From assembly GCF_003790525.1 (NCBI RefSeq), contig NZ_CP033635.1: DNA of 64,000 nt. The stretch is one strand, 5' to 3'. Below are positions 1 through 26,891 of this stretch, piece after piece. How positions within the stretch are numbered: the stretch's first letter is position 1; the number at the start of each line of letters is the position of its first letter. The DNA is from Escherichia coli. Lineage in GTDB: Bacteria; Pseudomonadota; Gammaproteobacteria; Enterobacterales; Enterobacteriaceae. The position numbers and the translations under genes were made by a program. Below the pieces are notes generated by a model. The model was given only the letters and a program-made list of their open reading frames with translations. It did not search any database and was not told the origin of the DNA.

Positions 1-187
1 GTACCATATTTGTGGCGAGGACATCATTAAGCCCCAATTCACCGTCCTGTACTTTTTGCACCATAAACGCCATCGCTTCATTGACGGCGAGCTTCGCGCC
101 TTCTCCTCCCTGCGAAACGCTACCTGCGCCATCAGCAAGGAACATCACCAGTAATGGCTGCTGGTCATTTAGCCAGGCAACCTGCAT
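1..187 (-). CDS. yegK: PP2C-like serine/threonine phosphatase, N-terminal part only (gene continues past window start)
   Basis: Minus-strand frame open from ATG (plus 185-187) to the window edge: MQVAWLNDQQPLLVMFLADGAGSVSQGGEGAKLAVNEAMAF...; the DGAGS stretch resembles a PP2C metal-binding motif. Absent from the ORF track because no stop lies inside the window. Sits downstream of yegL as in E. coli. Confidence 0.5.
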   Translation of the reverse strand, partial: MQVAWLNDQQPLLVMFLADGAGSVSQGGEGAKLAVNEAMAFMVQKVQDGELGLNDVLATNMV

Positions 188-264
188 CTGGCAGGCATCC
201 TGACAAGGTAAATCAGCGCTAATGTGCGACGTTCCAACAGCGGATGCATAAACCAGACGCCAGC

Positions 265-924
265 TCACACTGACGTCCAGCCTTTTGGCGCTTCCAGCAC
301 AACTTCCGTTCCCGGCGTGGAGCGGGAAACCGAACGCAGTGAACTGGATAACCAGCTAAACAGTTCGCGGAATTGTAATCCCTGCAGAGACAAAGGCTGA
401 CGGACGCTGATTTGGGCCAGCGTCTTCATATCCGCCCCCTGAACACCGATGGAAAAGAAGGCAAACTTCTTATCTTCTTCCCCCTGAAACACTTTGTTGG
501 CGGCAGCCTGCCACTCATCGGTTGGAGCGCCATCGGTGATCAGGAAAATCCACGGGCGATAATACGAAATACCATTTGCACGATACTCACGTTTCCGCTC
601 CTCTACCATATCCAGGGCTTTGGTAATGGCGGCACCCATTGGTGTATCGCCCTGGGCAAACAGGATGGGCGGGAAAAAATTAGCGGCGCTGGTAAAGGGT
701 TGTTCCACATGCACCGGGCCGAACGTCACAATACCAAGTTCCACTCTTTTTAAGGCCAGCGGGTCGGCAAGCAGCTCATCGCGAAAGGTAACCAATCCGG
801 CGTTAAGTTCATTAATGGGTCTACCGTTCATCGAACCAGAAACATCCAGCAGCAAAATGCAGGGGCAACGTGGTTCCGGGTTACTGGCAAAATCGCTGGT
901 GGCAAACGTGATTTGTTCGCTCAT
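265..924 (-). CDS. yegL: von Willebrand factor A (vWA) domain protein
   Basis: 219-aa ORF; MIDAS-type motif LLLDVSGSM near the N-terminus; position before mdtA matches E. coli yegL. Confidence 0.85.
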
Positions 925-1105
925 AAGAAATCCTTTCTTAGAGAATTATTGAGGTCCGGTATCATACCGATTGCAATAATGAAATAAGAGCAAACGAAGA
1001 AACTTTCAGAATTAGGCCCGGCGGCGCAGAAAATTTTGCTATTCGCCTCGCAAGAACGGAGAGCCGTCGATTGACACTAAGGGCGGAGTGACATAATTTC
1101 AGGAG

Positions 1106-1256
1106 TGAGGGTTAGGGAGAGGTTTCCCCCTCCCCCTGGTGTTCTTAGTAAGCCTGGAAGCTAATCACTAAGAGTATCACCAGTATGATGACGTGCTTCA
1201 TCATAACCCTTTCCTTATTTAAAAGCCCTCTTCTCCGGGAGAGGGTTCCCCGTTTT
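1106..1256 (+). ncRNA. sibA: Sib-type antisense sRNA (antitoxin) fully overlapping the ibs ORF; ends approximate
   Basis: Promoter TTGACA (1071-1076) - 17 bp - TAATTT (1094-1099) on plus strand; GC-rich hairpin plus T-run at about 1225-1256; arrangement antisense to the ibs ORF as known for Sib RNAs. Confidence 0.6.
1145..1204 (-). CDS. ibsA: Ibs-family type I toxin peptide (19 aa, MMKHVIILVILLVISFQAY)
   Basis: Hand translation of the minus strand; matches the Ibs toxin family pattern (MMK + hydrophobic core + FPAY-like end) remembered from E. coli ibsA-E. Confidence 0.75.
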   Translation of the reverse strand: MMKHVIILVILLVISFQAY

Positions 1257-1441
1257 AGCGTCCCGCTGAAATCGTCGGCTTACCTCCTTTCGCCCTGAAT
1301 GCAGTCTATCGCTGACTTGCGGATAAAATAGTTTCAAGTGTGATTATTGCGTAACGACTCGCAAAGAATATTTGCTGGCAGGATCGCAGACTGCAAAGCC
1401 TGCAGATTGACAATCTTATCGTGAAGGCATACTTTCAGGAG

Positions 1442-1584
1442 TGAGGGTAGAGCGGGGTTTCCCCCGCCCTGGTAGTCTTAGTAAGCGGGGAAGCTTATGA
1501 CTAAGAGCACCACGATGATGAGTAGCTTCATCATGACCCTTTCCTTATTTAAGGCCCCTTCCTCGGGAGGGGCTTTCCCGTTTC
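1442..1584 (+). ncRNA. sibB: Sib-type antisense sRNA (antitoxin); ends approximate
   Basis: Promoter TTGACA (1407-1412) - 17 bp - TACTTT (1430-1435); hairpin plus T-run at about 1554-1584. Confidence 0.6.
1478..1534 (-). CDS. ibsB: Ibs-family type I toxin peptide (18 aa, MMKLLIIVVLLVISFPAY)
   Basis: Hand translation of the minus strand; sequence as remembered for E. coli IbsB. Confidence 0.8.
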   Translation of the reverse strand: MMKLLIIVVLLVISFPAY

Positions 1585-1769
1585 AGCGTCCCGCTGAAAT
1601 CTTCGGCTTACCTCCTTTCGCCCTGTATGCAGTCTATCGCTGACTTGCGGATAAAATAGTTTCAAGTGTGATTATTGCGTAACGCCTCGCAAAGAATATT
1701 TGCTGGCAGGATCGCAGACTGCAAAGCCTGCGGATTGACAATCTGACCGTGAAGGCATACTTTCAGGAG

Positions 1770-1903
1770 TGAGGGTTGAGCGGGGTTTCCCCCGCCCTGG
1801 TAGTCTTAGTAAGCCGGGAAGCTTATGACTAAGAGCACCACGATGATGATCCACTTCATCATGACCCTTTCCTTATTTATGGCCCCTTCCTCGGGAGGGG
1901 CTT
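1770..1903 (+). ncRNA. Sib-type antisense sRNA (antitoxin), third copy; ends approximate
   Basis: Promoter TTGACA (1735-1740) - 17 bp - TACTTT (1758-1763); hairpin plus T-run at about 1873-1903. Confidence 0.55.
1806..1862 (-). CDS. Ibs-family type I toxin peptide, third copy (18 aa, MMKWIIIVVLLVISFPAY)
   Basis: Hand translation of the minus strand inside the third repeat unit; same family signature. Confidence 0.75.
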   Translation of the reverse strand: MMKWIIIVVLLVISFPAY

Positions 1904-2069
1904 TCCCGTTTCAGCGTCCCGCTGAAATCGTCGGCTTACCTCCTTTCGCCATGCAAGCAGTCTATCGCTAACGCGTAGATAAAATAGTTTCCTGTGTTAT
2001 TACTGGATGCGTGCTCGCAAATGTGCCCGCCATTCAGACGATTCCCGATAGTGTTTCATAATTCCTCCA

Positions 2070-2087
2070 TTTTTCTCCCTTATTGGC
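2070..2087 (+). promoter_or_regulatory. BaeR box upstream of mdtA
   Basis: TTTTTCTCCCTTATTGGC matches the published BaeR consensus TTTTTCTCCATDATTGGC at 17 of 18 positions, about 55 bp upstream of the mdtA start. Confidence 0.6.
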
Positions 2088-2140
2088 TGGCTACACTAGT
2101 ATCATTCCGCGAAACGTTTCAGGAAGAGAAACTCTTAACG

Positions 2141-3388
2141 ATGAAAGGCAGTTATAAATCCCGTTGGGTAATCGTAATCGTGGTGGTTATCGCCGCCATC
2201 GCCGCATTCTGGTTCTGGCAAGGCCGCAATGACTCCCAGAGTGCAGCCCCAGGGGCGACGAAACAAGCGCAGCAATCGCCAGCGGGTGGTCGCCGTGGTA
2301 TGCGTTCCGGCCCATTAGCCCCGGTTCAGGCGGCGACCGCCGTAGAACAGGCAGTTCCGCGTTACCTCACCGGGCTTGGCACCATTACCGCTGCTAACAC
2401 CGTTACGGTGCGCAGCCGCGTAGATGGTCAGTTGATGGCGTTACATTTCCAGGAAGGCCAGCAGGTCAAAGCAGGCGATTTACTGGCAGAAATTGACCCC
2501 AGCCAGTTCAAAGTTGCATTAGCACAAGCCCAGGGCCAACTGGCAAAAGATAAAGCCACGCTTGCCAACGCCCGCCGTGACCTGGCGCGTTATCAACAAC
2601 TGGTAAAAACCAATCTCGTATCTCGTCAGGAACTGGATGCCCAACAAGCGCTGGTCAGTGAAACCGAAGGCACCATTAAGGCTGATGAAGCAAGCGTCGC
2701 CAGCGCACAGCTGCAACTCGACTGGAGCCGCATCACCGCACCAGTCGATGGTCGCGTTGGTCTCAAGCAGGTTGATGTTGGTAACCAAATCTCCAGTGGT
2801 GATACCACCGGAATTGTGGTGATCACCCAGACGCATCCTATCGATTTGCTCTTTACCCTGCCGGAAAGCGATATCGCTACCGTTGTGCAGGCGCAAAAAG
2901 CCGGAAAACCGCTGGTGGTAGAAGCCTGGGATCGCACCAACTCGAAGAAATTAAGTGAAGGCACGCTGTTAAGTCTCGATAACCAAATCGATGCCACTAC
3001 CGGTACGATTAAAGTGAAAGCACGCTTTAATAATCAGGATGATGCGCTGTTTCCCAATCAGTTTGTTAACGCGCGCATGTTAGTCGACACCGAACAAAAC
3101 GCCGTAGTGATCCCAACAGCCGCCCTGCAAATGGGCAATGAAGGCCATTTTGTCTGGGTACTGAATAGCGAAAACAAGGTCAGCAAACATCTGGTGACGC
3201 CGGGCATTCAGGACAGTCAGAAAGTGGTGATCCGCGCAGGTATTTCTGCGGGCGATCGCGTGGTGACAGACGGCATTGATCGCCTGACCGAAGGGGCGAA
3301 AGTGGAAGTGGTGGAAGCCCAGAGCGCCACCACTCCGGAAGAGAAAGCCACCAGCCGCGAATACGCGAAAAAAGGAGCACGCTCCTGA
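2141..3388 (+). CDS. mdtA: RND efflux membrane fusion protein MdtA (415 aa)
   Basis: ORF 1994-3388 trimmed to ATG at 2141 ([14 protein letters not shown]...); periplasmic adaptor-like sequence; stop overlaps the mdtB start (TGATG). Confidence 0.9.
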
Positions 3389-6300
3389 TGCAGGTGTTAC
3401 CCCCGAGCAGCACAGGCGGCCCGTCGCGCCTGTTTATTATGCGTCCTGTGGCCACCACGCTGCTGATGGTGGCGATCTTACTCGCCGGGATTATCGGTTA
3501 TCGCGCCCTGCCCGTTTCGGCGCTGCCGGAAGTGGACTATCCGACCATTCAGGTGGTCACGCTCTACCCAGGTGCGAGCCCGGATGTCATGACCTCTGCC
3601 GTTACCGCGCCGCTCGAACGCCAGTTCGGGCAGATGTCTGGTCTGAAACAGATGTCGTCGCAAAGTTCCGGCGGTGCGTCAGTTATCACTTTGCAGTTCC
3701 AGCTAACATTACCGCTGGATGTCGCCGAGCAGGAAGTACAGGCCGCGATTAACGCTGCGACCAACTTGTTGCCGAGCGATCTGCCTAACCCGCCGGTTTA
3801 CAGCAAAGTGAACCCGGCAGATCCGCCGATCATGACGCTCGCCGTCACCTCAACAGCCATGCCGATGACGCAAGTGGAAGATATGGTGGAAACCCGCGTC
3901 GCGCAGAAAATCTCGCAGATTTCCGGCGTCGGCCTGGTGACGCTTTCCGGCGGCCAGCGTCCGGCTGTTCGCGTCAAACTTAACGCTCAGGCGATTGCCG
4001 CCCTCGGCCTGACCAGCGAAACCGTGCGCACCGCCATTACCGGCGCTAACGTTAACTCGGCAAAAGGTAGCCTCGACGGCCCTTCCCGCGCGGTTACGCT
4101 TTCCGCGAATGACCAAATGCAATCTGCGGAAGAATATCGCCAGTTGATTATCGCCTACCAGAACGGCGCGCCGATTCGTCTGGGCGATGTCGCAACTGTA
4201 GAGCAAGGTGCAGAAAACAGCTGGCTCGGCGCATGGGCGAACAAAGAACAGGCCATTGTGATGAATGTTCAGCGCCAGCCCGGTGCTAACATTATCTCCA
4301 CCGCCGACAGCATCCGGCAGATGCTGCCACAGCTCACCGAGAGTTTGCCGAAATCGGTGAAGGTGACGGTACTTTCTGACCGTACCACCAATATCCGCGC
4401 ATCTGTCGATGATACTCAGTTTGAATTGATGATGGCTATCGCGCTGGTAGTCATGATTATCTACCTGTTTTTGCGCAATATTCCGGCGACCATCATTCCC
4501 GGTGTTGCCGTGCCGCTGTCGTTAATCGGCACTTTTGCGGTTATGGTGTTTCTCGATTTTTCAATCAATAACCTGACACTGATGGCGTTAACTATCGCCA
4601 CCGGATTCGTGGTCGATGACGCCATCGTGGTGATCGAAAACATTTCCCGCTATATCGAAAAAGGCGAAAAACCGTTGGCGGCGGCGCTCAAGGGCGCAGG
4701 TGAAATCGGCTTTACCATTATCTCGCTGACCTTCTCACTGATTGCGGTGTTGATCCCACTGCTGTTTATGGGCGATATCGTCGGGCGACTGTTCCGCGAA
4801 TTTGCTATTACCCTGGCGGTAGCGATTTTGATCTCAGCGGTGGTGTCGCTGACCCTGACACCGATGATGTGCGCGCGGATGCTCAGCCAGGAGTCGTTGC
4901 GTAAACAGAACCGCTTCTCCCGTGCCTCGGAAAAAATGTTCGACAGGATAATCGCCGCCTATGGTCGTGGACTGGCGAAAGTGCTGAATCATCCGTGGCT
5001 GACCTTAAGCGTGGCACTCAGCACGCTGCTGCTTAGCGTGCTGCTGTGGGTGTTCATTCCGAAAGGTTTCTTCCCGGTACAGGACAATGGCATTATTCAG
5101 GGCACTTTGCAGGCACCGCAATCCAGCTCCTTTGCCAATATGGCCCAGCGACAACGCCAGGTCGCGGACGTGATTTTGCAGGATCCGGCAGTGCAAAGCC
5201 TGACCTCATTTGTTGGCGTTGATGGCACTAACCCGTCGCTGAACAGTGCACGTTTACAAATCAACCTCAAACCGTTGGATGAACGTGATGATCGGGTGCA
5301 AAAAGTCATCGCCCGTCTGCAAACGGCGGTAGATAAAGTGCCGGGCGTCGATCTCTTCCTGCAACCAACGCAGGATCTGACTATTGATACTCAGGTCAGC
5401 CGCACCCAGTACCAGTTTACCTTGCAGGCCACGTCACTGGATGCGCTCAGTACCTGGGTGCCACAGTTGATGGAAAAACTCCAGCAACTGCCACAGCTTT
5501 CTGATGTCTCCAGCGACTGGCAGGACAAAGGGCTGGTGGCGTATGTCAATGTTGATCGCGACAGCGCCAGCCGTCTGGGGATCAGCATGGCGGATGTCGA
5601 TAACGCCCTGTACAACGCGTTTGGTCAGCGGCTGATTTCCACTATTTATACTCAGGCCAACCAGTATCGCGTGGTGCTGGAGCACAACACCGAAAATACC
5701 CCAGGCCTCGCGGCGCTGGATACCATTCGCCTGACCAGCAGCGACGGCGGCGTGGTGCCGCTAAGCTCAATTGCCAAAATTGAGCAGCGTTTTGCGCCGC
5801 TCTCCATCAACCATCTGGATCAGTTCCCGGTAACGACCATCTCCTTTAACGTGCCGGATAACTATTCGCTGGGCGATGCGGTGCAGGCGATTATGGACAC
5901 CGAAAAGACGCTGAATCTGCCGGTGGATATCACCACGCAGTTCCAGGGCAGCACCCTCGCCTTCCAGTCGGCGCTGGGCAGCACTGTCTGGCTGATTGTC
6001 GCGGCGGTGGTGGCGATGTATATCGTGCTCGGCATTCTGTACGAGAGCTTTATTCACCCGATCACCATTCTCTCGACGCTACCCACCGCAGGGGTTGGCG
6101 CACTGCTGGCGTTGCTGATTGCTGGTAGCGAACTGGATGTGATTGCGATTATCGGCATTATTTTGCTGATCGGTATCGTGAAGAAGAACGCCATCATGAT
6201 GATCGACTTCGCGCTGGCTGCCGAGCGCGAGCAAGGCATGTCGCCGCGCGAGGCAATCTACCAGGCTTGTCTGTTGCGTTTTCGTCCGATCCTGATGACC

Positions 6301-6510
6301 ACCCTGGCGGCTCTGCTTGGCGCGCTGCCGCTGATGTTGAGTACCGGGGTCGGCGCGGAACTGCGTCGTCCGTTAGGTATCGGCATGGTCGGCGGCCTGA
6401 TTGTCAGCCAGGTGCTGACGCTGTTCACCACGCCGGTGATTTATCTGCTGTTCGACCGCCTGGCATTGTGGACCAAAAGCCGCTTTGCCCGTCATGAAGA
6501 GGAGGCGTAA
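3388..6510 (+). CDS. mdtB: RND multidrug efflux transporter MdtB (1040 aa)
   Basis: 1040-aa ORF with 12-TM RND architecture, a paralog of the next ORF. Confidence 0.95.
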
Positions 6511-9500
6511 GTGAAGTTTTTTGCCCTCTTCATTTACCGTCCGGTGGCGACGATTTTACTGTCGGTTGCCATTACCCTGTGCGGCATACTGGGCTTCCGT
6601 ATGCTGCCGGTCGCCCCGCTGCCGCAGGTCGATTTTCCGGTGATTATGGTCAGCGCCTCGCTGCCCGGTGCGTCACCAGAAACAATGGCGTCTTCCGTTG
6701 CCACGCCGCTGGAGCGCTCACTTGGGCGCATTGCCGGAGTCAGTGAAATGACCTCCAGCAGTTCGCTCGGCAGCACGCGTATTATTTTGCAGTTTGATTT
6801 TGACCGGGATATCAACGGCGCAGCGCGTGATGTGCAGGCGGCGATCAACGCTGCACAAAGTTTGCTGCCCAGTGGGATGCCCAGCCGCCCGACCTATCGC
6901 AAAGCGAACCCGTCGGATGCGCCAATTATGATCCTCACGCTGACGTCCGATACTTATTCGCAGGGTGAACTGTACGATTTCGCCTCGACGCAGCTGGCTC
7001 CGACGATTTCGCAAATCGACGGTGTTGGTGATGTCGATGTCGGAGGCAGCTCACTGCCCGCCGTACGCGTCGGGCTGAATCCGCAGGCGCTGTTTAATCA
7101 GGGCGTGTCGCTGGACGACGTACGCACCGCCGTCAGCAATGCCAACGTGCGTAAACCGCAGGGCGCGCTGGAAGATGGCACTCACCGCTGGCAGATCCAG
7201 ACCAATGATGAGCTAAAAACCGCCGCTGAATATCAGCCGTTGATTATTCACTACAACAACGGCGGCGCGGTTCGTCTGGGCGATGTGGCGACGGTGACCG
7301 ACTCAGTGCAGGATGTGCGCAACGCCGGGATGACCAACGCCAAACCGGCTATTTTACTGATGATCCGCAAACTGCCGGAAGCCAATATTATCCAGACGGT
7401 TGACAGCATCCGGGCAAAATTACCGGAGTTGCAGGAAACCATTCCGGCGGCGATTGATCTGCAAATTGCCCAGGATCGCTCCCCCACCATTCGCGCCTCG
7501 CTGGAAGAAGTCGAGCAAACGCTGATTATCTCGGTGGCGCTGGTGATTCTGGTGGTGTTTTTATTCCTGCGCTCGGGTCGCGCCACTATTATTCCCGCCG
7601 TTTCGGTGCCGGTTTCGCTGATTGGTACGTTTGCGGCGATGTACCTGTGCGGATTCAGTCTCAATAACCTTTCGTTAATGGCGCTCACCATCGCTACTGG
7701 TTTCGTGGTGGATGACGCCATCGTGGTGCTGGAAAACATTGCACGTCATCTGGAAGCGGGAATGAAACCGTTGCAAGCCGCACTGCAAGGTACTCGCGAA
7801 GTCGGTTTTACGGTGCTGTCGATGAGTCTGTCACTGGTGGCGGTGTTCCTGCCGCTGCTGTTGATGGGCGGATTGCCGGGCCGACTGTTACGCGAATTTG
7901 CCGTGACGCTTTCTGTCGCCATTGGTATATCGTTGCTGGTTTCTCTGACATTAACGCCAATGATGTGTGGCTGGATGCTGAAAGCCAGCAAGCCGCGCGA
8001 GCAAAAGCGACTGCGTGGTTTTGGTCGCATGTTGGTAGCCCTGCAACAAGGCTACGGCAAGTCACTGAAATGGGTGCTCAATCATACCCGTCTGGTGGGC
8101 GTGGTGCTGCTTGGCACCATTGCGCTGAATATCTGGCTGTATATCTCGATCCCGAAAACCTTCTTCCCGGAGCAGGACACTGGCGTGTTGATGGGCGGGA
8201 TTCAGGCGGATCAGAGTATTTCGTTTCAGGCGATGCGCGGTAAGTTGCAGGATTTCATGAAAATTATCCGTGACGATCCGGCAGTGGATAATGTCACCGG
8301 CTTTACAGGCGGTTCGCGAGTGAACAGCGGGATGATGTTTATCACCCTCAAGCCACGCGACGAACGCAGCGAAACGGCGCAGCAAATTATCGACCGTCTG
8401 CGCGTAAAACTGGCGAAAGAACCGGGGGCGAATCTGTTCCTGATGGCGGTACAGGATATTCGCGTTGGTGGGCGTCAGTCGAACGCCAGCTACCAGTACA
8501 CGTTGTTATCCGACGACCTGGCGGCACTGCGAGAATGGGAGCCGAAAATCCGCAAAAAACTGGCGACGTTGCCGGAACTGGCGGACGTGAACTCCGATCA
8601 GCAGGATAACGGCGCGGAGATGAATCTGGTTTACGACCGCGACACCATGGCACGGCTGGGAATCGACGTACAAGCCGCCAACAGTCTGTTAAATAACGCC
8701 TTCGGTCAGCGGCAAATCTCGACCATTTACCAGCCGATGAACCAGTATAAAGTGGTGATGGAAGTGGATCCGCGCTATACCCAGGACATCAGTGCGCTGG
8801 AAAAAATGTTCGTTATCAATAACGAAGGCAAAGCGATCCCGCTGTCGTATTTCGCTAAATGGCAACCGGCGAATGCCCCACTATCGGTGAATCATCAGGG
8901 ATTATCGGCGGCCTCGACCATTTCGTTTAACCTGCCGACCGGAAAATCGCTCTCGGACGCCAGTGCGGCGATCGATCGCGCAATGACCCAGCTTGGTGTG
9001 CCTTCGACGGTGCGCGGCAGTTTTGCCGGCACGGCGCAGGTGTTCCAGGAGACGATGAACTCGCAGGTGATCCTGATTATCGCCGCCATCGCCACGGTGT
9101 ATATCGTGCTGGGTATCCTTTACGAGAGTTACGTACATCCGCTGACGATTCTCTCCACCCTGCCCTCGGCGGGCGTTGGAGCGCTGTTGGCGCTGGAGCT
9201 GTTCAATGCCCCGTTCAGCCTAATCGCCCTGATAGGGATCATGCTTTTAATCGGCATCGTGAAGAAAAACGCCATTATGATGGTCGATTTTGCGCTTGAA
9301 GCCCAACGGCACGGTAACCTGACGCCGCAGGAAGCTATTTTCCAGGCCTGTCTGCTGCGTTTTCGCCCGATTATGATGACTACCCTGGCGGCGCTGTTTG
9401 GTGCGCTGCCGCTGGTATTGTCGGGCGGCGACGGCTCGGAGCTGCGGCAACCCCTGGGGATCACCATTGTCGGCGGACTGGTAATGAGCCAGCTCCTTAC

Positions 9501-9588
9501 GCTGTATACCACGCCGGTGGTGTATCTCTTTTTCGACCGTCTGCGGCTGCGTTTTTCGCGTAAACCTAAACAAACGGTAACCGAGTAA
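6511..9588 (+). CDS. mdtC: RND multidrug efflux transporter MdtC (1025 aa), GTG start
   Basis: 1025-aa ORF immediately after mdtB; RND family. Confidence 0.95.
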
Positions 9589-11004
9589 ATGACAGATCTT
9601 CCCGACAGCACCCGTTGGCAATTGTGGATTGTGGCTTTCGGCTTCTTTATGCAGTCGCTGGACACCACCATCGTAAACACCGCCCTTCCCTCAATGGCGC
9701 AAAGCCTCGGGGAAAGTCCGTTGCATATGCACATGGTCATTGTCTCTTATGTGCTGACCGTGGCGGTGATGCTGCCCGCCAGCGGCTGGCTGGCGGACAA
9801 AGTCGGCGTGCGCAATATTTTCTTTACCGCCATCGTGCTGTTTACTCTCGGTTCACTGTTTTGCGCGCTTTCCGGCACGCTGAACGAACTGTTGCTGGCA
9901 CGCGCGTTACAGGGCGTTGGCGGCGCGATGATGGTGCCGGTCGGCAGATTGACGGTGATGAAAATCGTACCGCGCGAGCAATATATGGCGGCGATGACCT
10001 TTGTCACGTTACCCGGTCAGGTCGGTCCGCTGCTCGGTCCGGCGCTCGGCGGTCTGCTGGTGGAGTACGCATCGTGGCACTGGATCTTTTTGATCAACAT
10101 TCCGGTGGGGATTATCGGTGCGATCGCCACATTGCTGTTAATGCCAAACTACACCATGCAGACGCGGCGCTTTGATCTCTCCGGATTTTTATTGCTGGCG
10201 GTTGGCATGGCGGTATTAACCCTGGCGCTGGACGGCAGTAAAGGTACAGGTTTATCGCCGCTGACGATTGCAGGCCTGGTCGCAGTTGGCGTGGTGGCAC
10301 TGGTGCTTTATCTGCTGCACGCCAGAAATAACAACCGTGCCCTGTTCAGTCTGAAACTGTTCCGTACTCGTACCTTTTCGCTGGGCCTGGCGGGGAGCTT
10401 TGCCGGACGTATTGGCAGTGGCATGTTGCCCTTTATGACACCGGTTTTCCTGCAAATTGGCCTCGGTTTCTCGCCGTTTCATGCCGGACTGATGATGATC
10501 CCGATGGTGCTTGGCAGCATGGGAATGAAGCGAATTGTGGTACAGGTGGTGAATCGCTTTGGTTATCGTCGGGTACTGGTAGCGACCACGCTGGGTCTGT
10601 CGCTGGTCACCCTGTTGTTTATGACTACCGCCCTGCTGGGCTGGTACTACGTTTTGCCGTTCGTCCTGTTTTTACAAGGGATGGTCAACTCGACGCGTTT
10701 CTCCTCCATGAACACCCTGACGCTGAAAGATCTCCCGGACAATCTGGCGAGCAGCGGCAACAGCCTGCTGTCGATGATTATGCAATTGTCGATGAGTATC
10801 GGCGTCACTATCGCCGGGCTGTTGCTGGGACTTTTTGGTTCACAGCATGTCAGCGTCGACAGCGGCACCACACAAACCGTCTTTATGTACACCTGGCTTA
10901 GCATGGCGTTGATCATCGCCCTTCCGGCGTTCATCTTTGCCAGAGTGCCGAACGATACGCATCAAAATGTAGCTATTTCGCGGCGAAAAAGGAGCGCGCA
11001 ATGA
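9589..11004 (+). CDS. mdtD: MFS transporter MdtD (471 aa)
   Basis: 471-aa polytopic membrane protein; start abuts the mdtC stop (TAAATG); stop overlaps the baeS start (ATGA). Confidence 0.9.
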
Positions 11005-12404
11005 AGTTCTGGCGACCCGGTATTACCGGCAAACTGTTTCTGGCGATTTTCGCCACCTGCATTGTCTTGCTGATCAGTATGCACTGGGCGGTGCGTATCA
11101 GTTTTGAGCGTGGCTTTATTGATTACATCAAGCATGGTAATGAACAGCGATTACAACTGTTAAGTGATGCGCTTGGCGAGCAGTATGCGCAGCATGGCAA
11201 CTGGCGCTTCCTGCGCAACAATGATCGCTTTGTCTTTCAGATCCTGCGTTCATTTGAACACGATAATTCGGAAGATAAACCCGGCCCGGGTATGCCACCG
11301 CACGGCTGGCGTACCCAGTTCTGGGTGGTTGATCAAAACAACAAAGTGCTGGTTGGTCCGCGAGCGCCGATTCCACCTGACGGTACACGGCGACCCATTC
11401 TGGTCAACGGTGCGGAAGTTGGCGCGGTGATCGCCTCCCCCGTTGAGCGGTTAACGCGCAATACTGATATCAATTTCGATAAACAACAGCGGCAAACCAG
11501 CTGGTTGATTGTCGCCCTGGCAACGTTACTCGCGGCACTTGCCACTTTTCTGCTGGCGCGCGGTTTACTGGCACCGGTAAAACGACTTGTCGATGGCACG
11601 CACAAACTGGCGGCGGGCGATTTCACTACCCGCGTAACGCCCACCAGTGAAGATGAACTGGGCAAACTGGCGCAAGACTTCAACCAGCTTGCCAGCACAC
11701 TGGAGAAAAACCAGCAAATGCGGCGCGATTTTATGGCCGATATTTCTCACGAACTGCGTACGCCATTAGCGGTGCTGCGCGGTGAACTGGAAGCCATTCA
11801 GGATGGCGTGCGTAAATTCACGCCGGAGACGGTGGCGTCTTTACAGGCGGAGGTCGGTACACTGACCAAACTGGTTGACGATCTCCATCAGTTGTCGATG
11901 TCTGATGAAGGCGCTCTCGCCTATCAAAAAGCACCGGTAGATTTGATCCCACTGCTGGAAGTGGCGGGCGGCGCATTTCGCGAACGATTCGCCAGTCGTG
12001 GCCTGAAACTGCAATTTTCCCTGCCAGACAGTATTACCGTATTTGGCGATCGCGACCGTTTAATGCAGTTATTCAATAACTTACTGGAAAACAGCCTGCG
12101 CTACACTGACAGCGGCGGCAGCCTGCAAATCTCTGCCGGGCAGCGCGACAAAACGGTGCGCCTGACCTTTGCCGACAGTGCGCCAGGTGTCAGTGACGAT
12201 CAGCTACAAAAATTGTTTGAACGTTTTTATCGCACCGAAGGTTCCCGCAACCGTGCCAGCGGCGGTTCCGGGCTGGGGCTGGCGATTTGCCTGAACATTG
12301 TTGAAGCACATAATGGTCGCATTATTGCTGCCCATTCGCCTTTTGGCGGGGTAAGCATTACAGTAGAGTTACCGCTGGAACGGGATTTACAGAGAGAAGT
12401 ATGA
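11001..12404 (+). CDS. baeS: Sensor histidine kinase BaeS (467 aa)
   Basis: Two TM segments, HAMP, H-box (ISHELRTPL) and ATPase G-boxes (GGSGLGLAI). Confidence 0.95.
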
Positions 12405-13123
12405 CCGAGTTACCAATCGACGAAAACACACCGCGTATTTTGATCGTGGAAGATGAACCGAAGCTGGGGCAGTTGCTCATTGATTATCTGCGTGCTGCGA
12501 GCTATGCGCCGACGCTTATCAGCCACGGCGATCAGGTACTGCCGTATGTGCGCCAGACACCACCGGATCTGATCCTGTTAGATCTGATGCTCCCTGGCAC
12601 CTATGGCCTGACGCTGTGCCGGGAAATTCGTCGTTTTTCTGACATTCCGATCGTGATGGTGACGGCAAAAATCGAAGAGATCGATCGCCTGCTGGGGCTG
12701 GAGATTGGCGCAGATGATTATATCTGTAAGCCGTACAGCCCACGGGAAGTGGTAGCGCGCGTCAAAACCATTTTGCGCCGTTGCAAACCGCAGCGCGAGT
12801 TGCAGCAACAGGATGCTGAAAGCCCGTTGATTATCGACGAAGGTCGTTTTCAGGCTTCATGGCGCGGTAAAATGCTTGACCTGACGCCTGCGGAATTTCG
12901 TCTGCTGAAAACGCTCTCTCACGAACCAGGAAAAGTGTTTTCCCGCGAGCAATTGCTCAATCATCTTTATGACGACTACCGCGTAGTAACCGACCGCACC
13001 ATCGACAGCCACATTAAAAACCTGCGCCGCAAGCTGGAATCTCTCGACGCCGAACAGTCATTTATCCGCGCCGTTTATGGCGTCGGTTACCGCTGGGAAG
13101 CCGACGCCTGCCGCATCGTTTAG
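12401..13123 (+). CDS. baeR: OmpR-family response regulator BaeR (240 aa)
   Basis: Receiver domain ([10 protein letters not shown]) plus winged-helix C-terminus; start overlaps the baeS stop. Confidence 0.95.
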
Positions 13124-13313
13124 TTTTAGCGACATTATTTTGTTAGCCGGAGATGGCGTTCAGACCAGATCCGGCAACATTATCCCACGCATGGTCAGCA
13201 AACTGACATTATCTCTCCGCCCTGGCAGGCATCAGAAAATCGCTCATACTTTAATCGGTAAACAGCACCTTTAGATGCTGTTTTCGATACACAATTTCAA
13301 TCAAGGAGTCATT

Positions 13314-13646
13314 ATGGCTGGTTGGTTTGAACTCAGTAAGAGCAGTGATAATCAGTTCCGGTTTGTGCTAAAAGCGGGCAATGGTGAGACTATCCTCACC
13401 AGCGAGCTTTATACCTCAAAAGCCTCTGCGGAAAAGGGCATCGCGTCGGTGCGTAGCAACAGCCCGCAAGAAGAACGCTATGAGAAAAAAACGGCAAGTA
13501 ACGGCAAATTCTATTTCAATCTGAAAGCCGCTAATCATCAAATTATCGGCTCCAGCCAGATGTACGCCACCGCGCAATCTCGTGAAACCGGAATTGCCTC
13601 CGTTAAAGCCAATGGCACAAGCCAGACGGTGAAAGACAATACGTAA
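13314..13646 (+). CDS. yegP: DUF1508/UPF0339 protein YegP (110 aa) with internal tandem duplication
   Basis: ORF 13275-13646 trimmed to ATG at 13314 after GGAG; two repeated halves (FRFVLKAGNGETI...GIASVRSN and KFYFNLKAANHQII...GIASVKAN). Confidence 0.85.
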   Translation: MAGWFELSKSSDNQFRFVLKAGNGETILTSELYTSKASAEKGIASVRSNSPQEERYEKKTASNGKFYFNLKAANHQIIGSSQMYATAQSRETGIASVKANGTSQTVKDNT

Positions 13647-13792
13647 TTACGATGCCGGGCGTGGGTTGTTGGCGTCCGGCGCTTTACCAGATCCCCCCAC
13701 AGCGCTACAATGCCCGCCCTTAAAGTGGGGGCACTCCCCTAACCGCTTCATCAGGTGAAGCGGATCTGACCTGTCATCAGAACGAGAGAATT

Positions 13793-15154
13793 ATGTTTAA
13801 ACCGGAACTCCTTTCCCCGGCGGGAACGCTGAAAAATATGCGTTACGCTTTCGCTTATGGCGCAGATGCTGTTTATGCGGGCCAGCCGCGTTACTCCCTG
13901 CGTGTGCGCAACAACGAATTCAACCACGAAAATCTTCAGCTCGGCATCAATGAAGCCCACGCGCTGGGGAAAAAGTTTTATGTCGTGGTCAACATTGCAC
14001 CGCACAACGCCAAGCTGAAAACCTTTATCCGTGACCTGAAACCGGTGGTGGAAATGGGGCCGGATGCGCTGATTATGTCCGATCCAGGGCTGATTATGCT
14101 GGTGCGTGAGCACTTCCCTGAAATGCCGATCCACCTCTCGGTGCAGGCTAACGCCGTAAACTGGGCGACGGTGAAATTCTGGCAGCAAATGGGCCTGACC
14201 CGCGTGATCCTCTCTCGCGAGCTGTCGCTGGAAGAGATTGAAGAGATCCGCAATCAGGTGCCGGATATGGAGATCGAGATCTTCGTTCACGGCGCACTGT
14301 GCATGGCCTACTCCGGTCGCTGCCTGCTCTCTGGCTATATCAACAAGCGCGATCCGAACCAGGGTACCTGCACCAACGCCTGCCGCTGGGAGTACAACGT
14401 CCAGGAAGGGAAAGAAGATGACGTTGGCAACATCGTACACAAGTACGAGCCGATTCCGGTGCAAAATGTTGAGCCGACGCTGGGTATCGGCGCGCCAACC
14501 GACAAAGTGTTTATGATCGAAGAAGCCCAGCGTCCGGGCGAGTATATGACCGCGTTTGAAGATGAGCACGGCACTTACATCATGAACTCGAAAGATCTGC
14601 GCGCCATCGCCCATGTAGAACGCCTGACCAAAATGGGCGTGCATTCGCTGAAAATCGAAGGCCGTACTAAATCTTTCTACTATTGCGCACGCACCGCACA
14701 GGTTTACCGTAAAGCTATCGATGACGCCGCTGCGGGCAAACCGTTCGATACCAGCCTGCTGGAAACTCTGGAAGGTCTGGCGCATCGTGGCTATACCGAA
14801 GGTTTCCTGCGTCGTCATACTCACGACGATTATCAGAACTACGAATACGGTTATTCAGTTTCTGACCGCCAGCAGTTTGTTGGTGAGTTTACCGGTGAGC
14901 GCAAGGGGGACCTCGCGGCGGTAGCGGTGAAAAATAAATTCTCCGTTGGCGACAGCCTTGAGCTGATGACGCCGCAAGGCAACATTAACTTTACCCTTGA
15001 GCACATGGAAAACGCCAAAGGTGAAGCGATGCCGGTCGCACCAGGCGATGGTTATACTGTGTGGCTCCCGGTCCCGCAGGATCTTGAGCTCAATTACGCT
15101 CTGCTGATGCGTAATTTCTCCGGGGAAACCACGCGTAACCCACACGGTAAGTGA
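13793..15154 (+). CDS. yegQ: Peptidase U32 family protein YegQ/TrhP (453 aa)
   Basis: 453-aa ORF, U32-type sequence with Cys-rich C-terminal half; position after yegP. Confidence 0.9.
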   Translation: MFKPELLSPAGTLKNMRYAFAYGADAVYAGQPRYSLRVRNNEFNHENLQLGINEAHALGKKFYVVVNIAPHNAKLKTFIRDLKPVVEMGPDALIMSDPGLIMLVREHFPEMPIHLSVQANAVNWATVKFWQQMGLTRVILSRELSLEEIEEIRNQVPDMEIEIFVHGALCMAYSGRCLLSGYINKRDPNQGTCTNACRWEYNVQEGKEDDVGNIVHKYEPIPVQNVEPTLGIGAPTDKVFMIEEAQRPGEYMTAFEDEHGTYIMNSKDLRAIAHVERLTKMGVHSLKIEGRTKSFYYCARTAQVYRKAIDDAAAGKPFDTSLLETLEGLAHRGYTEGFLRRHTHDDYQNYEYGYSVSDRQQFVGEFTGERKGDLAAVAVKNKFSVGDSLELMTPQGNINFTLEHMENAKGEAMPVAPGDGYTVWLPVPQDLELNYALLMRNFSGETTRNPHGK

Positions 15155-15238
15155 TTAATTTCGATTATTTTTCCCGGATGGAAAATTCTTAGAAACCGAT
15201 CACATACAGCTGCATTTATTAAGGTTATCATCCGTTTC

Positions 15239-15325
15239 GCTGAAAAACATAACCCATAAAATGCTAGCTGTACCAGGAACCACCTCCTTAGCCTGTGTAA
15301 TCTCCCTTACACGGGCTTATTTTTT
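15239..15325 (+). ncRNA. cyaR: CyaR (RyeE) Hfq-dependent sRNA
   Basis: GCTGAAAAACATAACCCATAAAATGCTAGCTGTACCAGGAACCACCTCCTTAGCCTGTGTAATCTCCCTTACACGGGCTTATTTTTT matches the CyaR sequence as remembered; ends in a hairpin (GTGTAATCTCCCTTACAC) plus T-run; a -10-like TATCAT lies about 8 bp upstream. Confidence 0.8.
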
Positions 15326-17187: not shown

Positions 17188-17841
17188 TTACGCAGCTACG
17201 GCTAACGCTGCCAGTAATTCATTCATCGATAAATATCTTGCACTCGCCGCATTAAAGCAGGTTTGTTGGGCATCTTCTGATACCACAATGGTGTTTATTC
17301 CTGCCGCCTGTGCTGCCTGAAAACCACTCACGCTGTCCTCTATAACCAAACAATCTGCAGCAGACAGTTGCAATTCTCGCAGTGCAGAAAGATAAACTGC
17401 CGGATGGGGTTTCCCATGCTTTTCGTCATCAGCACTACAAATCACCGAAAAATAATGCTGAATATTGAGTTTTGTCAGTACAGCATCGATCACCTGGTAA
17501 GATGAAGAGGTTGCCAGCGCCAGTTGATAGCCACTCCGGCGCAAAAAAAATAACACGTCCTGAACGCCTGGCATCGCTTCGCCCGTCCCGGCAATCAACG
17601 TAGTGATCAGGCGGCGAATCTCACTTTCCAACAGTGCGGGTTCAATGTGTAAATGACAATATTCACACCAGGTTTGGGCAATCTCATCCAGCCTTTTACC
17701 TTTAGTCAGTCTTATACACTCTTCGTCACTGACACATGCGCCCCACCTTGCCAGTGCTCCCTTTTGTGCCTCACGCCATAACCCTTCCGAATCAATGATG
17801 ACGCCGTCCATATCAAAAATGACTGCTTTACAATTAAACAT
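17188..17841 (-). CDS. HAD-superfamily sugar-phosphate phosphatase (217 aa)
   Basis: ORF 17188-17886 trimmed to ATG at 17841 preceded by GAGGAA; HAD motif I FDMDGVIIDS; lies immediately downstream of atlT. Confidence 0.8.
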   Translation of the reverse strand: MFNCKAVIFDMDGVIIDSEGLWREAQKGALARWGACVSDEECIRLTKGKRLDEIAQTWCEYCHLHIEPALLESEIRRLITTLIAGTGEAMPGVQDVLFFLRRSGYQLALATSSSYQVIDAVLTKLNIQHYFSVICSADDEKHGKPHPAVYLSALRELQLSAADCLVIEDSVSGFQAAQAAGINTIVVSEDAQQTCFNAASARYLSMNELLAALAVAA

Positions 17842-17885
17842 TGTTCCTCGCAATAAAGCCTGGCACCACACCAGGCTTGTCGTCA

Positions 17886-19163
17886 TCAGGAAATGGTGGC
17901 GGTCTTCCCTTCACACACTTGCTGATTTGAGAATCCCGGTTGTTCGACGCGAATAAACGGGCAAATAATAAACGCTATCACATACAGGGTGGTGTAAGCG
18001 ATAACCACACCAATAGTACTGAAATAAGGCAGAAGTACCACGGCGATTGCCGGAGCAAGGAAGTTGGACAACCCGGCTGAAAGGTTATAAACCGAAATAG
18101 CTGCTCCTTTATGTTTCGGTTCCAGTGCCGGGAAAACGGCTGCCATCGGTACGAATGCAGCAACAAAGATCCCCAGTGCCACCGCAGGTATCAGCGCCAT
18201 AGCAAAGTTATGACCGAAATGTTGCGGCATGTAGTAGAACGCCAGGCTTGAAAGCGCCATTCCCACGCAACCAAACCAGCGAACAACTTTCATCCAGCCC
18301 ATTTTCTCTGCCAGCACGCCCCAGAATACGTTAGAGAAGATGGTGGTAAAGAAGAAGACTGCCCAGACCTGCAACCACTCAGAGGTGGTAAAGCCCAGCT
18401 CATCAACAAACATCATCGGCATAATTACGGCGAATCCGAATAAAGATAAGGTGTTGATAATGCGAACAATACTGGAAAGCAAAATATTGCGGTTGGTATA
18501 AAGCAAAGTCACCGCACGGCCCAGTTCGCTAAACTTCTCTTTTGTGGTTAGGTTTTGCATATGGCGTGGTGTTTCTACTTTGCGCATAGAAATTAACGCA
18601 ACAGCGCCACCAACCCCACAGAAGGCCAGCGCCAGCCATAATGTTCCCATTTCGCCAATAAGCGGAATGGTAAAACTGGGGATGTAGCTGCCGAATACGC
18701 CGATACCAATAGAGTAAACTGCCCAGAACCAGCCCAGAGCAGCACTGGTGCTGTCACTGCGTACGTTATGGACAATCGCCACAATAAAGGCGTAGAGGAA
18801 CAGCGGATAGGCTAGGCCACGAATACCATAAAACAGCAGGATTAACCCATAGTTCGCCTGCCCCAGACCAAAGACCAGAAACAGCACGTGAAATACGCAC
18901 CACAGCACAAAGCCGATAAACATGGTTTTTTGTGGCGTAATAATTTCGGCAACTACGCCGGAAACCCAGGCGGAAAGCGCTGCCGCCAGGCCATAGAGCG
19001 TAAAGGCAAAGGAGGCTTCTGCAGGCGTGAAACCCAGTGCTTTAATGTAATGCGACAGGAATGCCAGTTCAAAACCGTCTCCGGTCATAAAGATGGCAAT
19101 GGCAATATATCCCCACACCAGATTTAAGGGTAATCCCAGCCATTGTTTATTTGTTAACGACAT
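17886..19163 (-). CDS. atlT: MFS pentitol transporter, D-arabitol operon (425 aa)
   Basis: ORF trimmed to MSLTNKQWLGL...; about 85% identical by eye to the second MFS protein at 26892-28166. Confidence 0.85.
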   Translation of the reverse strand: MSLTNKQWLGLPLNLVWGYIAIAIFMTGDGFELAFLSHYIKALGFTPAEASFAFTLYGLAAALSAWVSGVVAEIITPQKTMFIGFVLWCVFHVLFLVFGLGQANYGLILLFYGIRGLAYPLFLYAFIVAIVHNVRSDSTSAALGWFWAVYSIGIGVFGSYIPSFTIPLIGEMGTLWLALAFCGVGGAVALISMRKVETPRHMQNLTTKEKFSELGRAVTLLYTNRNILLSSIVRIINTLSLFGFAVIMPMMFVDELGFTTSEWLQVWAVFFFTTIFSNVFWGVLAEKMGWMKVVRWFGCVGMALSSLAFYYMPQHFGHNFAMALIPAVALGIFVAAFVPMAAVFPALEPKHKGAAISVYNLSAGLSNFLAPAIAVVLLPYFSTIGVVIAYTTLYVIAFIICPFIRVEQPGFSNQQVCEGKTATIS

Positions 19164-19231
19164 AGTGACCTCGTTTGTAGGATACAAAACGCCGCTCCGG
19201 TGCAAACACCGGAGGGCATTTGTGACAGATG

Positions 19232-20695
19232 TTATTGATTGCGATAGTTCAGGTCGTTGTGATACAGCGCAGTAAACTGCTGATATCGTTGCATCAGCGC
19301 ATTATGACGTTCAGGATCGCTGCGCCAGGTTTTGAAGATTTCAGGTTTTTCACACACTGCCGCCAGTGGTTTTCCCGCAGCAAGACAGGCCAGACGCGCG
19401 GCTCCCAGCGCCCCACCCGTTTCACCGCCTTTATGCGTCACCACTGGCATATCGAGAATATCGGCCAGTAACTGCGCCCAGAATGGACTTCTCGCCCCCC
19501 CACCTACCAGCGAGCATTGCTCAATTGCCGTACCGCTTTCTTGCAGGACTCGCAGCCCATCGGCAATACCAAAGCTGACGCCTTCCAGCACTGCATATCC
19601 CATTAGCGCACGCTGACTGGAGTGTGTCAGCGCCCAGAACAATCCCCGGGCATGAGGATCGTTATGTGGCGTACGTTCACCAGAAAGATACGGGAGGAAC
19701 ATCGGTGCACTGGCTTTGTCTGCATCAGAAAGTTGGGCAATCTCTTCCAGTAACTCTGTTTCCGTTACCCCCACCAGACGGCAGAACCATTGCAGACAAC
19801 TGGCGGCACTGAGCATTACACTCATCTGGTGCCATAAATTCGGTAGTACGTGACAGAAAGCATGGACTGCTGATTGCGGCGCAGGACGATAGGCATCAGT
19901 CACTACAAACAACACCCCGGAAGTTCCCAAAGAAATAAACGCATCTCCGGGAGAAACGGCCCCCACACCAATTGCGCTCACGGCGTTATCGCCACCGCCA
20001 CCAGCAACTACAACCGAAGATGTCAGCCCCCAACGGCTGGCAACTTCAGGGGAAAGAGTGGCAGAAACGTCACAACCTTCCACCAGTTCCGGCATATTCG
20101 CCCGTGTCAGGCCACATTTTTCCAGCAACGAATCTGACCAGTCGCGTTTTTCCACGTCGAGCCACAACGTGCCAGCAGAATCCGACATATCGGAAATCTT
20201 TTGGCCGGTCATTTTGAAACGCAAATAGTCTTTCGGCAGTAAAACGGTGGAAATGCGCGCAAAGTGCTGCGGCTCATGGCGCCGTACCCATAGCAATTTG
20301 GGGGCGGTAAATCCAGGCATCGCCAGGTTTCCCGCTACCTGATGCAACTCTGGTGCGATCTCTTCCAGCTCCGCACACTCCTGCGCACTGCGGGTGTCGT
20401 TCCATAAAATCGCCGGACGAATCGCCTCTCCTTTTTCATCCAACAGGACGGCACCATGCATTTGACCAGAAAGGCCAATGGCTTTGATCGCCTGCCAGTG
20501 GTGACCGCATTTTTCCCGCAGGGTCGACATTAAATATTCCGTCGCTTCCCACCAGGCTTGCGGCGATTGTTCTGACCAGTGTGGATGGGGCCGCTGAATG
20601 GTCAGCGGCGCACTATGGGTGGCAACAATTTCATTGTTTTCATCAATGACCAGCGCCTTAACTTCCGATGTGCCCAGATCGATACCCAGATACAT
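19232..20695 (-). CDS. atlK: FGGY-family kinase, xylulokinase-like (487 aa)
   Basis: N-terminus MYLGIDLGTSEVKA typical of FGGY sugar kinases; AGGAGG before the ATG. Confidence 0.85.
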   Translation of the reverse strand: MYLGIDLGTSEVKALVIDENNEIVATHSAPLTIQRPHPHWSEQSPQAWWEATEYLMSTLREKCGHHWQAIKAIGLSGQMHGAVLLDEKGEAIRPAILWNDTRSAQECAELEEIAPELHQVAGNLAMPGFTAPKLLWVRRHEPQHFARISTVLLPKDYLRFKMTGQKISDMSDSAGTLWLDVEKRDWSDSLLEKCGLTRANMPELVEGCDVSATLSPEVASRWGLTSSVVVAGGGGDNAVSAIGVGAVSPGDAFISLGTSGVLFVVTDAYRPAPQSAVHAFCHVLPNLWHQMSVMLSAASCLQWFCRLVGVTETELLEEIAQLSDADKASAPMFLPYLSGERTPHNDPHARGLFWALTHSSQRALMGYAVLEGVSFGIADGLRVLQESGTAIEQCSLVGGGARSPFWAQLLADILDMPVVTHKGGETGGALGAARLACLAAGKPLAAVCEKPEIFKTWRSDPERHNALMQRYQQFTALYHNDLNYRNQ

Positions 20696-20708
20696 AACCG
20701 CCTCCTGG

Positions 20709-22076: not shown

Positions 22077-22288
22077 TGTTTCGTTCTCCATTGACGTTAT
22101 GGCTGAACTGTAATCGAACATTTGAGTTAATTAAGAGCGTTAGATCACAAAAGAACAATTGACCAAAAAAATTACAAATGACCAAATCAAAGCAATAAAC
22201 TTGCCTCGCGGTAAAGCTATGGCCAAAATGACGCTAATCAGTTGCGGGATTTTCACGATTCCGCACGCCACTTTTGAGGTAGGGAAAC

Positions 22289-23230: not shown

Positions 23231-23232
23231 TC

Positions 23233-24264: not shown

Positions 24265-24422
24265 AAATTTGCCTCTTCATTTTGAATGTCTCTTGCTGAG
24301 AATTTAAGCAAGTGCTAGATCTGCTTCATCGATTGAGCAGTTTGCTTCACACGGCAGCTAAATTCCCGTTCAGTGCGTGCAAGCAAACAGAGACTATAAA
24401 TTCGCCCTGGTAAAAGGATTAT

Positions 24423-25175: not shown

Positions 25176-25185
25176 GGGCGCAATC

Positions 25186-26790: not shown

Positions 26791-26891
26791 TTAACCAGCC
26801 GCCTGACGCTGTTTTCAGGCAATCACTAATAACGACTCACTCCGGTAATATCCCGGAGTGCATTCATCTGCACCCTAAAAACGAGGTTTAT

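Follow-up and report, generated by a model that had tools for sequence, protein, structure and literature searches.

The mdtABCD-baeSR operon of Escherichia coli packs six genes end to end, which raises the question of whether these genes are read from one transcript as a chain of translationally coupled cistrons. The window analyzed here, a stretch of 64,000 nucleotides from an E. coli chromosome (contig NZ_CP033635.1), carries an intact, canonical copy of this textbook operon at positions 2141-13123 of the + strand. Both the ORFs and the RefSeq annotation give six co-directional genes, arranged as mdtA, mdtB, mdtC, mdtD, baeS, baeR, and the gene names of the original prediction are right, as all six products score above the NCBIfam equivalog or subfamily cut-offs for the respective proteins. 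The operon opens with mdtA (2141..3388), encoding the RND periplasmic adaptor (NF008589, 722 bits against a cut-off of 391), followed by the two RND permease genes mdtB (3388..6510; NF007798, 2243 bits against 1584) and mdtC (6511..9588; NF007905, 2210 bits against 1774); the latter begins with GTG, and MdtC aligns from residue 1 onward to profile positions 1-1024 of NF007905. The MFS transporter gene mdtD, also named iceT (9589..11004; NF007799, 969 bits against 426), the sensor histidine kinase gene baeS (11001..12404; NF007837, 930 bits against 603) and the OmpR-family response regulator gene baeR (12401..13123; NF007982, 447 bits against 380) complete it, baeR being the last gene.

The locus is present at a coverage of at least 80% in 5420 of 5426 complete E. 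coli genomes. RefSeq places the gene boundaries identically in a strain with 100% identity to window positions 2000-13400, and the same boundaries are annotated in K-12, O157:H7, UTI89 and WB61; the junction architecture is identical in five diverse E. coli strains. Against K-12, whose copy of the operon (yegMNOB-baeSR) belongs to the envelope-stress regulon of BaeR, the identity of the window is 99.3% over 11.4 kb, and the six genes, their order and the junction architecture are the same, with a BaeR-box-like site upstream of mdtA; there is no difference of substance within the operon. Upstream of it, this strain carries three Sib/Ibs copies, while K-12 presumably has two at the corresponding place. 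An Rfam scan returned no RNA families inside the operon.

The stop and start codons overlap or adjoin at all five internal boundaries, which is the geometry of coupled gene pairs. At mdtA/mdtB the junction is TGATG with a 1-nt overlap (3386-3390, +; mdtA TGA 3386-3388, mdtB ATG 3388-3390), and at mdtC/mdtD it is TAAATG with a 0-nt gap (9586-9591, +; mdtC TAA 9586-9588, mdtD ATG 9589-9591). Two 4-nt ATGA overlaps follow: mdtD/baeS (11001-11004, +; baeS ATG 11001-11003, mdtD TGA 11002-11004) and baeS/baeR (12401-12404, +; baeR ATG 12401-12403, baeS TGA 12402-12404). These four junctions had been listed in the original prediction and match the letters of the window exactly, in agreement with the ORF coordinates; the list was incomplete, however, since it left out the equally tight mdtB/mdtC junction, TAAGTG with a 0-nt gap (6508-6513, +; mdtB TAA 6508-6510, mdtC GTG 6511-6513). 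The five spacings in order are thus -1, 0, 0, -4 and -4 nt, with intergenic DNA at none, so that a terminating ribosome would halt on the next start codon or at most one base from it. Elsewhere in the window a spacing of 0 nt or less is found in 7 of the 33 co-directional neighbor pairs (as counted from a reference-strain annotation), and five consecutive tight junctions out of five therefore exceed the local base rate. The tight junctions are a real, selected feature, yet of a very common kind; the layout is already understood and conserved across related bacteria, and the earlier judgment that it is expected and ordinary holds.

The same base rate can be turned toward a different explanation, in which the overlaps are a neutral by-product of stop and start codon drift, ATGA and TGATG being the arrangements most easily reached, and a free 30S subunit initiates each cistron at its own ribosome binding site. 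Such compaction without coupling gains from the frequency of short overlaps, both in the 7 of 33 other pairs of the window and in prokaryotes at large, where about 15% of gene pairs overlap (PMC6728339). Conservation was counted in samples of Enterobacteriaceae with one genome per species, up to 79 species, and it points mostly the other way: the 1-nt overlap of mdtA/mdtB occurs in 69/69 species and the ATGA of baeS/baeR in 79/79, both junction types being invariant despite varying flanking codons. The 0-nt gap of mdtB/mdtC is kept in 70 of 71 species, and mdtD/baeS falls between -4 and +3 nt in 76 of 77 (-4 in 54, -1 in 14, 0 in 1 and +3 in 7). The exception, which suits neutral compaction, is mdtC/mdtD, where the spacing drifts between species (-4 to +4 nt in 67/71, 20-56 nt in four); as some lineages have also lost mdtD, this junction appears to be under weaker constraint. 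Taken from sequence comparison, this conservation supports selection on the junctions. The mdtC start codon itself varies, with GTG in 44 species and ATG in 28; a compensation between start codon and Shine-Dalgarno (SD) strength was considered and dropped, as the pattern is not clean and follows phylogeny.

The sequences upstream of the start codons divide the five junctions into two classes: SD-assisted (mdtB, mdtC and baeS) and SD-poor (mdtD and baeR). Near the end of the upstream gene, an SD core precedes mdtB in 67/69 species, mdtC in 71/71 and baeS in 75/77, against a background of 2.8% of 15-nt windows. The mdtB SD is AGGAG at 3373-3377, inside mdtA; that of mdtC is a strong GAGGAGG at 6499-6505 (-12.0 kcal/mol); and that of baeS is AAGGAG at 10989-10994 (-7.9 kcal/mol), made of the mdtD codons AAA AGG AGC. 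The AGG codon of this tail is fixed, although AGG is rare elsewhere in mdtD (61 of 1208 Arg codons). The SD core is mostly missing before mdtD (GGAG or GAGG in 2/71 species) and before baeR (14/79); in the window mdtD has no SD upstream (duplex -3.0 kcal/mol), and baeR has a weak one only (GAGAGAAG, -4.1 kcal/mol). The SD of mdtA itself is also weak, with a duplex of -4.3 kcal/mol. The strong SDs of mdtB, mdtC and baeS would permit independent initiation too, as compaction without coupling requires; what speaks against it is that mdtD and baeR in most species keep the tight spacing without an SD. Because the SD is mostly missing there, these two genes stand out as the foremost candidates for translation relying on the upstream ribosome.

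According to folding predictions, the SD of mdtB and the start codon of mdtC could be masked by small hairpins. At mdtA/mdtB (3373..3390) the SD AGGAG at 3373-3377 can pair with CUCCU at 3382-3386, and the hairpin is part of the MFE structure; among 61 distinct sequences 88.9% of cells are paired, in comparison to 38-59% when slid. There is no covariation among these 61 sequences, and covariation proof of this SD-masking hairpin is impossible because the SD arm is invariant. At mdtB/mdtC (6499..6537) the stop and start codons lie within a predicted helix of 10 bp, formed by 6507-6516 and 6528-6537 (fold z -1.73); this helix is paired in 92.7% of cells versus 33-54% when slid, and has 13 double-change cells, with minimal covariation that is confounded by protein-coding conservation and phylogenetic clustering. 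The junctions mdtC/mdtD, mdtD/baeS and baeS/baeR have no predicted structure beyond shuffled controls. The two predicted hairpins would impede free initiation at mdtB and mdtC, which again speaks against compaction without coupling, and overall we consider that explanation improbable.

The reading we favor, and hold to be likely, is that this known operon with a BaeR-activated mdtA promoter and five gapless boundaries is translationally coupled by SD-assisted or SD-poor routes. Transcription of all six genes would start at the BaeR-activated promoter upstream of mdtA; at mdtB, mdtC and baeS initiation would be assisted by the conserved SD that the final codons of the preceding gene contain. 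Hairpins masking the mdtB SD or the mdtC start would be unfolded by the upstream ribosome, after which the same ribosome may restart or the site may open to a new one. For mdtD and baeR, which have no usable SD, translation would most likely proceed via re-initiation by the terminating ribosome. We infer both the coupling itself and the route at each junction from this analysis. The claim of one translationally coupled transcript, made in the original prediction, is supported at that level, by the operon literature, the junction class and the junction conservation.

Junctions with spacings of -4, -1 and 0 nt belong to a class for which termination-reinitiation coupling has been shown in four of five native E. 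coli pairs (PMC6728339). The coupled pairs hyfHI, astDB, ydbH/ynbE as well as menDH (Huber et al. 2019, PMC6728339) are likewise co-directional, with overlaps of -4 or -1 nt, and share with the present operon an SD that lies within the upstream gene in some cases and is lacking in others; however, coupling was measured there and is deduced from sequence here, two of the present junctions show no overlap but a 0-nt gap, and one has a GTG start. The remaining pair, bioBF, which Huber et al. included among their five E. coli ATGA pairs, is uncoupled despite its weak SD (PMC6728339); junction type alone is therefore no proof of coupling, and bioBF counts in favor of compaction. Both mechanistic models of coupling, re-initiation and RNA unfolding, have been reviewed (PMC12548453). 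The local hairpins predicted to cover the SD of mdtB and the start codon of mdtC resemble the unfolding models of rpmI-rplT and atpHA (PMC12548453), although those seen here are short (5 and 10 bp), predicted only, and restricted to two of five junctions; as they overlap the stop codon itself, unfolding and re-initiation are inseparable in this operon. A literature search found no experiment on coupling in mdtABCD-baeSR.

Co-transcription of all six genes from the mdtA promoter rests on the literature, where mdtABCD-baeSR is treated as one BaeR-activated operon (PMC7657598; PMC12046405). The mdtA promoter region is the place of the operon's single known regulated promoter, and a BaeR ChIP-exo peak lies upstream of mdtA (PMC7657598). 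In the window, a BaeR-box-like site TTTTTCTCCCTTATTGGC is found at 2070..2087 (+), with the mdtA ATG 54 nt downstream. It has one mismatch to TTTTTCTCCATDATTGGC, which we take to be the BaeR-box consensus of Nishino 2005; nothing else in the window matches, although at least one match also arose in 18 of 100 shuffles. In an ICA study the BaeR iModulon holds mdtA and baeR, and not mdtBCD or baeS (PMC7657598), which counts against the favored reading; that baeR is included probably stems from the knock-out strains of that data set.

A separate possibility is that baeSR, or baeR alone, is expressed mostly from a promoter buried in an upstream coding sequence, making the sensor genes transcriptionally independent of the pump genes. 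The expression data are divided on this: without inducer, a baeR deletion leaves the baeS mRNA level unaltered (log2 fold change -0.41), indicating basal expression with no need of BaeR, while in the induced baeR deletion baeS falls by 4.6 log2 units, as if driven by the mdtA promoter (PMC7657598). The one promoter-like match on the + strand inside the operon, TTGCCT-16-CATAAT at 12287-12314, lies 87 nt upstream of baeR; it was rejected as a candidate, since it encodes His-Asn of the kinase G2 region and is conserved only in Escherichia, Citrobacter and Salmonella, with CACGGC in most genera. Promoter-like matches in general occur at chance level (8, against 9.9 ± 3.0 in shuffles), and no conserved internal promoter was found in the operon. 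Furthermore, a genomic SELEX survey places no constitutive promoters inside it (PMC3946193), and entries for the operon genes were not found in the SMRT-Cappable-seq supplementary data.

Terminator-like matches number 20, against 17.1 ± 4.3 in shuffles, with none convincing on the + strand inside the operon. Term-seq data from K-12 place a bicyclomycin-sensitive Rho termination region within mdtA (PMC7815308, supplementary file 2), which is the only entry for the operon in those supplementary data; in uninduced cells it would curb read-through from the mdtA promoter, a point in favor of internal promoters. The upstream read count of this region probably reflects the neighboring SibB RNA, because the method counts in 800-nt windows. 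Internal promoters with independent transcripts had been named at the outset as what would overturn the single-transcript view; looked for here, they are unsupported by the chance-level scan, the unconserved match and the SELEX survey. We regard a largely independent baeSR transcript as unlikely, and internal promoters would in any case not exclude coupling on the long transcript.

The junction layout was already known, carries little weight beyond book-keeping and opens no new question. A speculative extension, to which we give little credence, is that the junctions act as hard-wired setters of stoichiometry, for BaeS and BaeR through the SD-poor ATGA and for MdtC below MdtB through the hairpin-masked start. 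If true, the invariant SD-poor ATGA of baeS/baeR would make BaeR synthesis dependent on ribosomes that complete BaeS and so hold the regulator-to-kinase ratio close to 1:1 or lower; in most two-component systems the regulator is generally made in large excess. The hairpin-masked mdtC start, GTG in many species, would likewise keep MdtC below MdtB, in line with the pump stoichiometry of MdtB2-MdtC1 reported in work cited in PMC4107485. The small additions made here are the mdtB/mdtC junction, the division into SD-assisted and SD-poor classes, and the conservation of the junction types across Enterobacteriaceae. Since an insertion close to a junction will probably exert a polar effect on translation of the following gene, these points could help in engineering or knocking out genes of this operon.

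The mdtABCD-baeSR operon lies on the plus strand, with mdtA at 2141-3388, mdtB at 3388-6510, mdtC at 6511-9588, mdtD at 9589-11004, baeS at 11001-12404, and baeR at 12401-13123; these boundaries are taken from the RefSeq annotation of an identical stretch and from a mechanical ORF list, and all six products (MdtA, MdtB, MdtC, MdtD, BaeS, and BaeR) pass the curated NCBIfam cut-offs. Positions 2000-13400 are 100% identical to E. coli 23CRST013 and 99.3% identical to K-12 MG1655, and 5420 of the 5426 complete E. coli genomes contain positions 2800-13200 at a coverage of at least 80%. The identity over 2000-13400 is only about 95% in 875 of 5423 E. coli records, UTI89 being among the examples listed; the 11-nt length difference in these records falls in the baeR-yegP spacer, outside the coding regions.

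Read directly from the window sequence, all five plus-strand junctions are tight. The original prediction named four of them, and each is correct: mdtA/mdtB has a 1-nt overlap (...CTCC TGATG CAG), mdtC/mdtD has a 0-nt gap (TAAATG), and mdtD/baeS and baeS/baeR each have a 4-nt ATGA overlap, the stated limits, 3386 and 12404, being the bases where the first junction begins and the last one ends. It omitted mdtB/mdtC, where the TAA at 6508-6510 is followed directly by a GTG at 6511-6513; this junction is as tight as the other four and should be added. The GTG is the true mdtC start because ATG occupies the same position in 28 of 72 related species, a conserved GAGGAGG precedes it, and the MdtC profile alignment begins at residue 1. 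By annotation, the rest of the window has 33 other pairs of co-directional neighbours, and 7 of these are spaced at zero or less (btsSR, yehQP, yehPM, thiMD, yegVU, yegUT, and yegL-pphC); a survey of 720 genomes gives about 15% overlapping co-directional pairs (PMC6728339). Five tight junctions out of five exceed this base rate, which for an operon is no surprise.

The same boundaries and near-identical junction sequences are present in five diverse E. coli (this strain, K-12, O157:H7, UTI89, and WB61). A BaeS scan of a one-genome-per-species collection gave 80 Enterobacteriaceae loci with 10-kb flanks, in which the six genes were placed by tblastn with an in-frame start/stop search and the spacings tabulated. 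The spacing is -1 in 69/69 for mdtA/mdtB, -4 in 79/79 for baeS/baeR, and 0 in 70 of 71 for mdtB/mdtC, with -1 in one (a seventy-second row, a paralogue artefact, is left out); mdtD/baeS displays -4 (54), -1 (14), 0 (1), +3 (7), and one odd -32, and mdtC/mdtD displays -4 (16), -1 (2), 0 (26), +1 (8), +2 (11), +3 (2), +4 (2), and 20-56 nt (4). Four junctions are therefore very tightly kept and mdtC/mdtD loosely. mdtD is truncated or absent at three loci, from Salmonella enterica subsp. arizonae (L023), Intestinirhabdus alba (L024), and a Pluralibacter MAG (L082), the mdtC-to-baeS distance being about 140-160 nt in the latter two; the link from pump to sensor thus persists even where mdtD and a tight junction are both lacking.

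The junctions fall into two classes by Shine-Dalgarno (SD) sequence. The duplex with the 16S rRNA tail reaches -7.9 kcal/mol for mdtB, -12.0 for mdtC, and -7.9 for baeS, and only -3.0 for mdtD and -4.1 for baeR, measured against a 5th percentile of -6.2 over all operon positions. An SD core, scored as GGAG or GAGG 4-18 nt upstream of the start, precedes mdtB in 67/69 species, mdtC in 71/71, and baeS in 75/77; it precedes mdtD in 2/71 and baeR in 14/79, with a background of 2.8% of 15-nt windows within mdtB. The baeS SD is spelled by the mdtD codons AAA AGG AGY; AGG is invariant at this site, yet in the rest of mdtD it accounts for just 61 of 1208 Arg codons, a clear sign that selection acts on the RNA and not the protein. 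The 3' tails of mdtA (3366-3385, GCGAAAAAAGGAGCACGC) and mdtD (10984-11000, GCGAAAAAGGAGCGCGC) are near-identical and each provides the SD of the next gene; this likeness is probably convergence on a lysine/arginine-rich tail combined with an SD.

When 70-nt windows are folded at the junctions, mdtA/mdtB is predicted to form a 5-bp hairpin pairing the SD AGGAG (3373-3377) with CUCCU (3382-3386), an arm that takes in the first base of the stop codon; mdtB/mdtC is predicted to form a 10-bp helix (6507-6516 with 6528-6537) around the UAA stop and GUG start, with a fold z of -1.73. Folding at mdtC/mdtD, mdtD/baeS, and baeS/baeR is no better than in shuffles. Across species 88.9% of cells are paired for the mdtA/mdtB hairpin versus 38-59% in slid controls, and 92.7% for the mdtB/mdtC helix versus 33-54%, a conservation that is no more than suggestive, since each helix falls within coding sequence and was derived from the E. 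coli sequence. No covariation across species was found for the hairpin; for the helix, double changes occur in 13 cells, most of which reflect a single G-C to A-U switch in Citrobacter.

In the literature the operon is treated as a single BaeR-activated unit (PMC7657598, PMC12046405), and ChIP-exo places a BaeR peak upstream of mdtA (PMC7657598); a BaeR-box-like sequence is found at 2070-2087. Internal promoters were the counter-evidence named in the original prediction; promoter-like and terminator-like matches in 1-14500 are about as numerous as in shuffles, and the sole plus-strand promoter-like match inside the operon (12287-12314) consists of His-Asn codons, is not conserved, and is rejected. 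The sole constitutive promoter that a SELEX survey reports here is one for yegP, located in the baeR-yegP spacer (PMC3946193). The baeR-yegP spacer (13124-13313) folds better than shuffles (z -2.54); no canonical hairpin-plus-U-run terminator was found in it, so the end of the operon transcript is not evident from sequence. A bicyclomycin-sensitive Rho termination region is reported inside mdtA in K-12, at K-12 coordinate 2154517, with 20 downstream 3'-end reads untreated versus 139 with bicyclomycin (Adams et al. 2021, PMC7815308, supplementary file 2). It would correspond to about window position 2640. The 3' end of the neighbouring SibB RNA is the probable source of its upstream counts, as the method uses 800-nt windows. 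The baeS mRNA is unchanged in a baeR deletion without inducer (PMC7657598); together with the Rho region this leaves a small door open to extra complexity.

Elsewhere in the window, three tandem Sib antitoxin RNAs (1071-1219, 1407-1549, and 1735-1877, plus strand; Rfam 138-150 bits) lie just upstream of mdtA, with annotated Ibs type I toxin ORFs on the minus strand; K-12 has two copies here (SibA and SibB), so this strain would carry an extra repeat. The CyaR sRNA (15237-15322, plus strand) and the TPP riboswitch upstream of thiMD (36047-36143, minus strand) are known elements. By the reference-strain annotation, a ribitol/D-arabitol-type catabolic island (about 17200-28200), not known from K-12, lies between yegS and fbaB and holds dalD, xylB, an FGGY kinase, an SDR oxidoreductase, two RbtT/DalT transporters, and two regulators. 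IS421 (IS4-like; about 48700-50100) is inserted in a DUF4132/WGR gene adjoining yehI; only 5 of 5426 E. coli genomes have this junction, the best matches being the O9:H10 strains Res13-Lact-PEB20-37-A and PEB21-38-A (100% identity). An OrzO-P type I antitoxin RNA (56468-56543, plus strand, 99.9 bits) is found between yehL and yehK, beside a roughly 285-nt indel in the reference strain relative to the window.

Two models of coupling are current: the upstream ribosome unfolds an inhibitory structure, or that ribosome itself re-initiates (PMC12548453). Of five native E. coli ATGA pairs put to the test, four showed coupling, and the need for the SD varied (PMC6728339). For mdtABCD-baeSR we infer a junction-by-junction scheme in which translation of mdtB and mdtC would be SD-assisted and hairpin-gated, that of baeS would be SD-assisted, and that of mdtD and baeR would depend mainly on re-initiation, as these two are without an SD yet keep tight spacing. 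Within the reach of sequence and literature, the reading of one translationally coupled transcript is supported; the tight junctions are an already known and ordinary feature of this operon, as was expected of them, and short overlaps are common.
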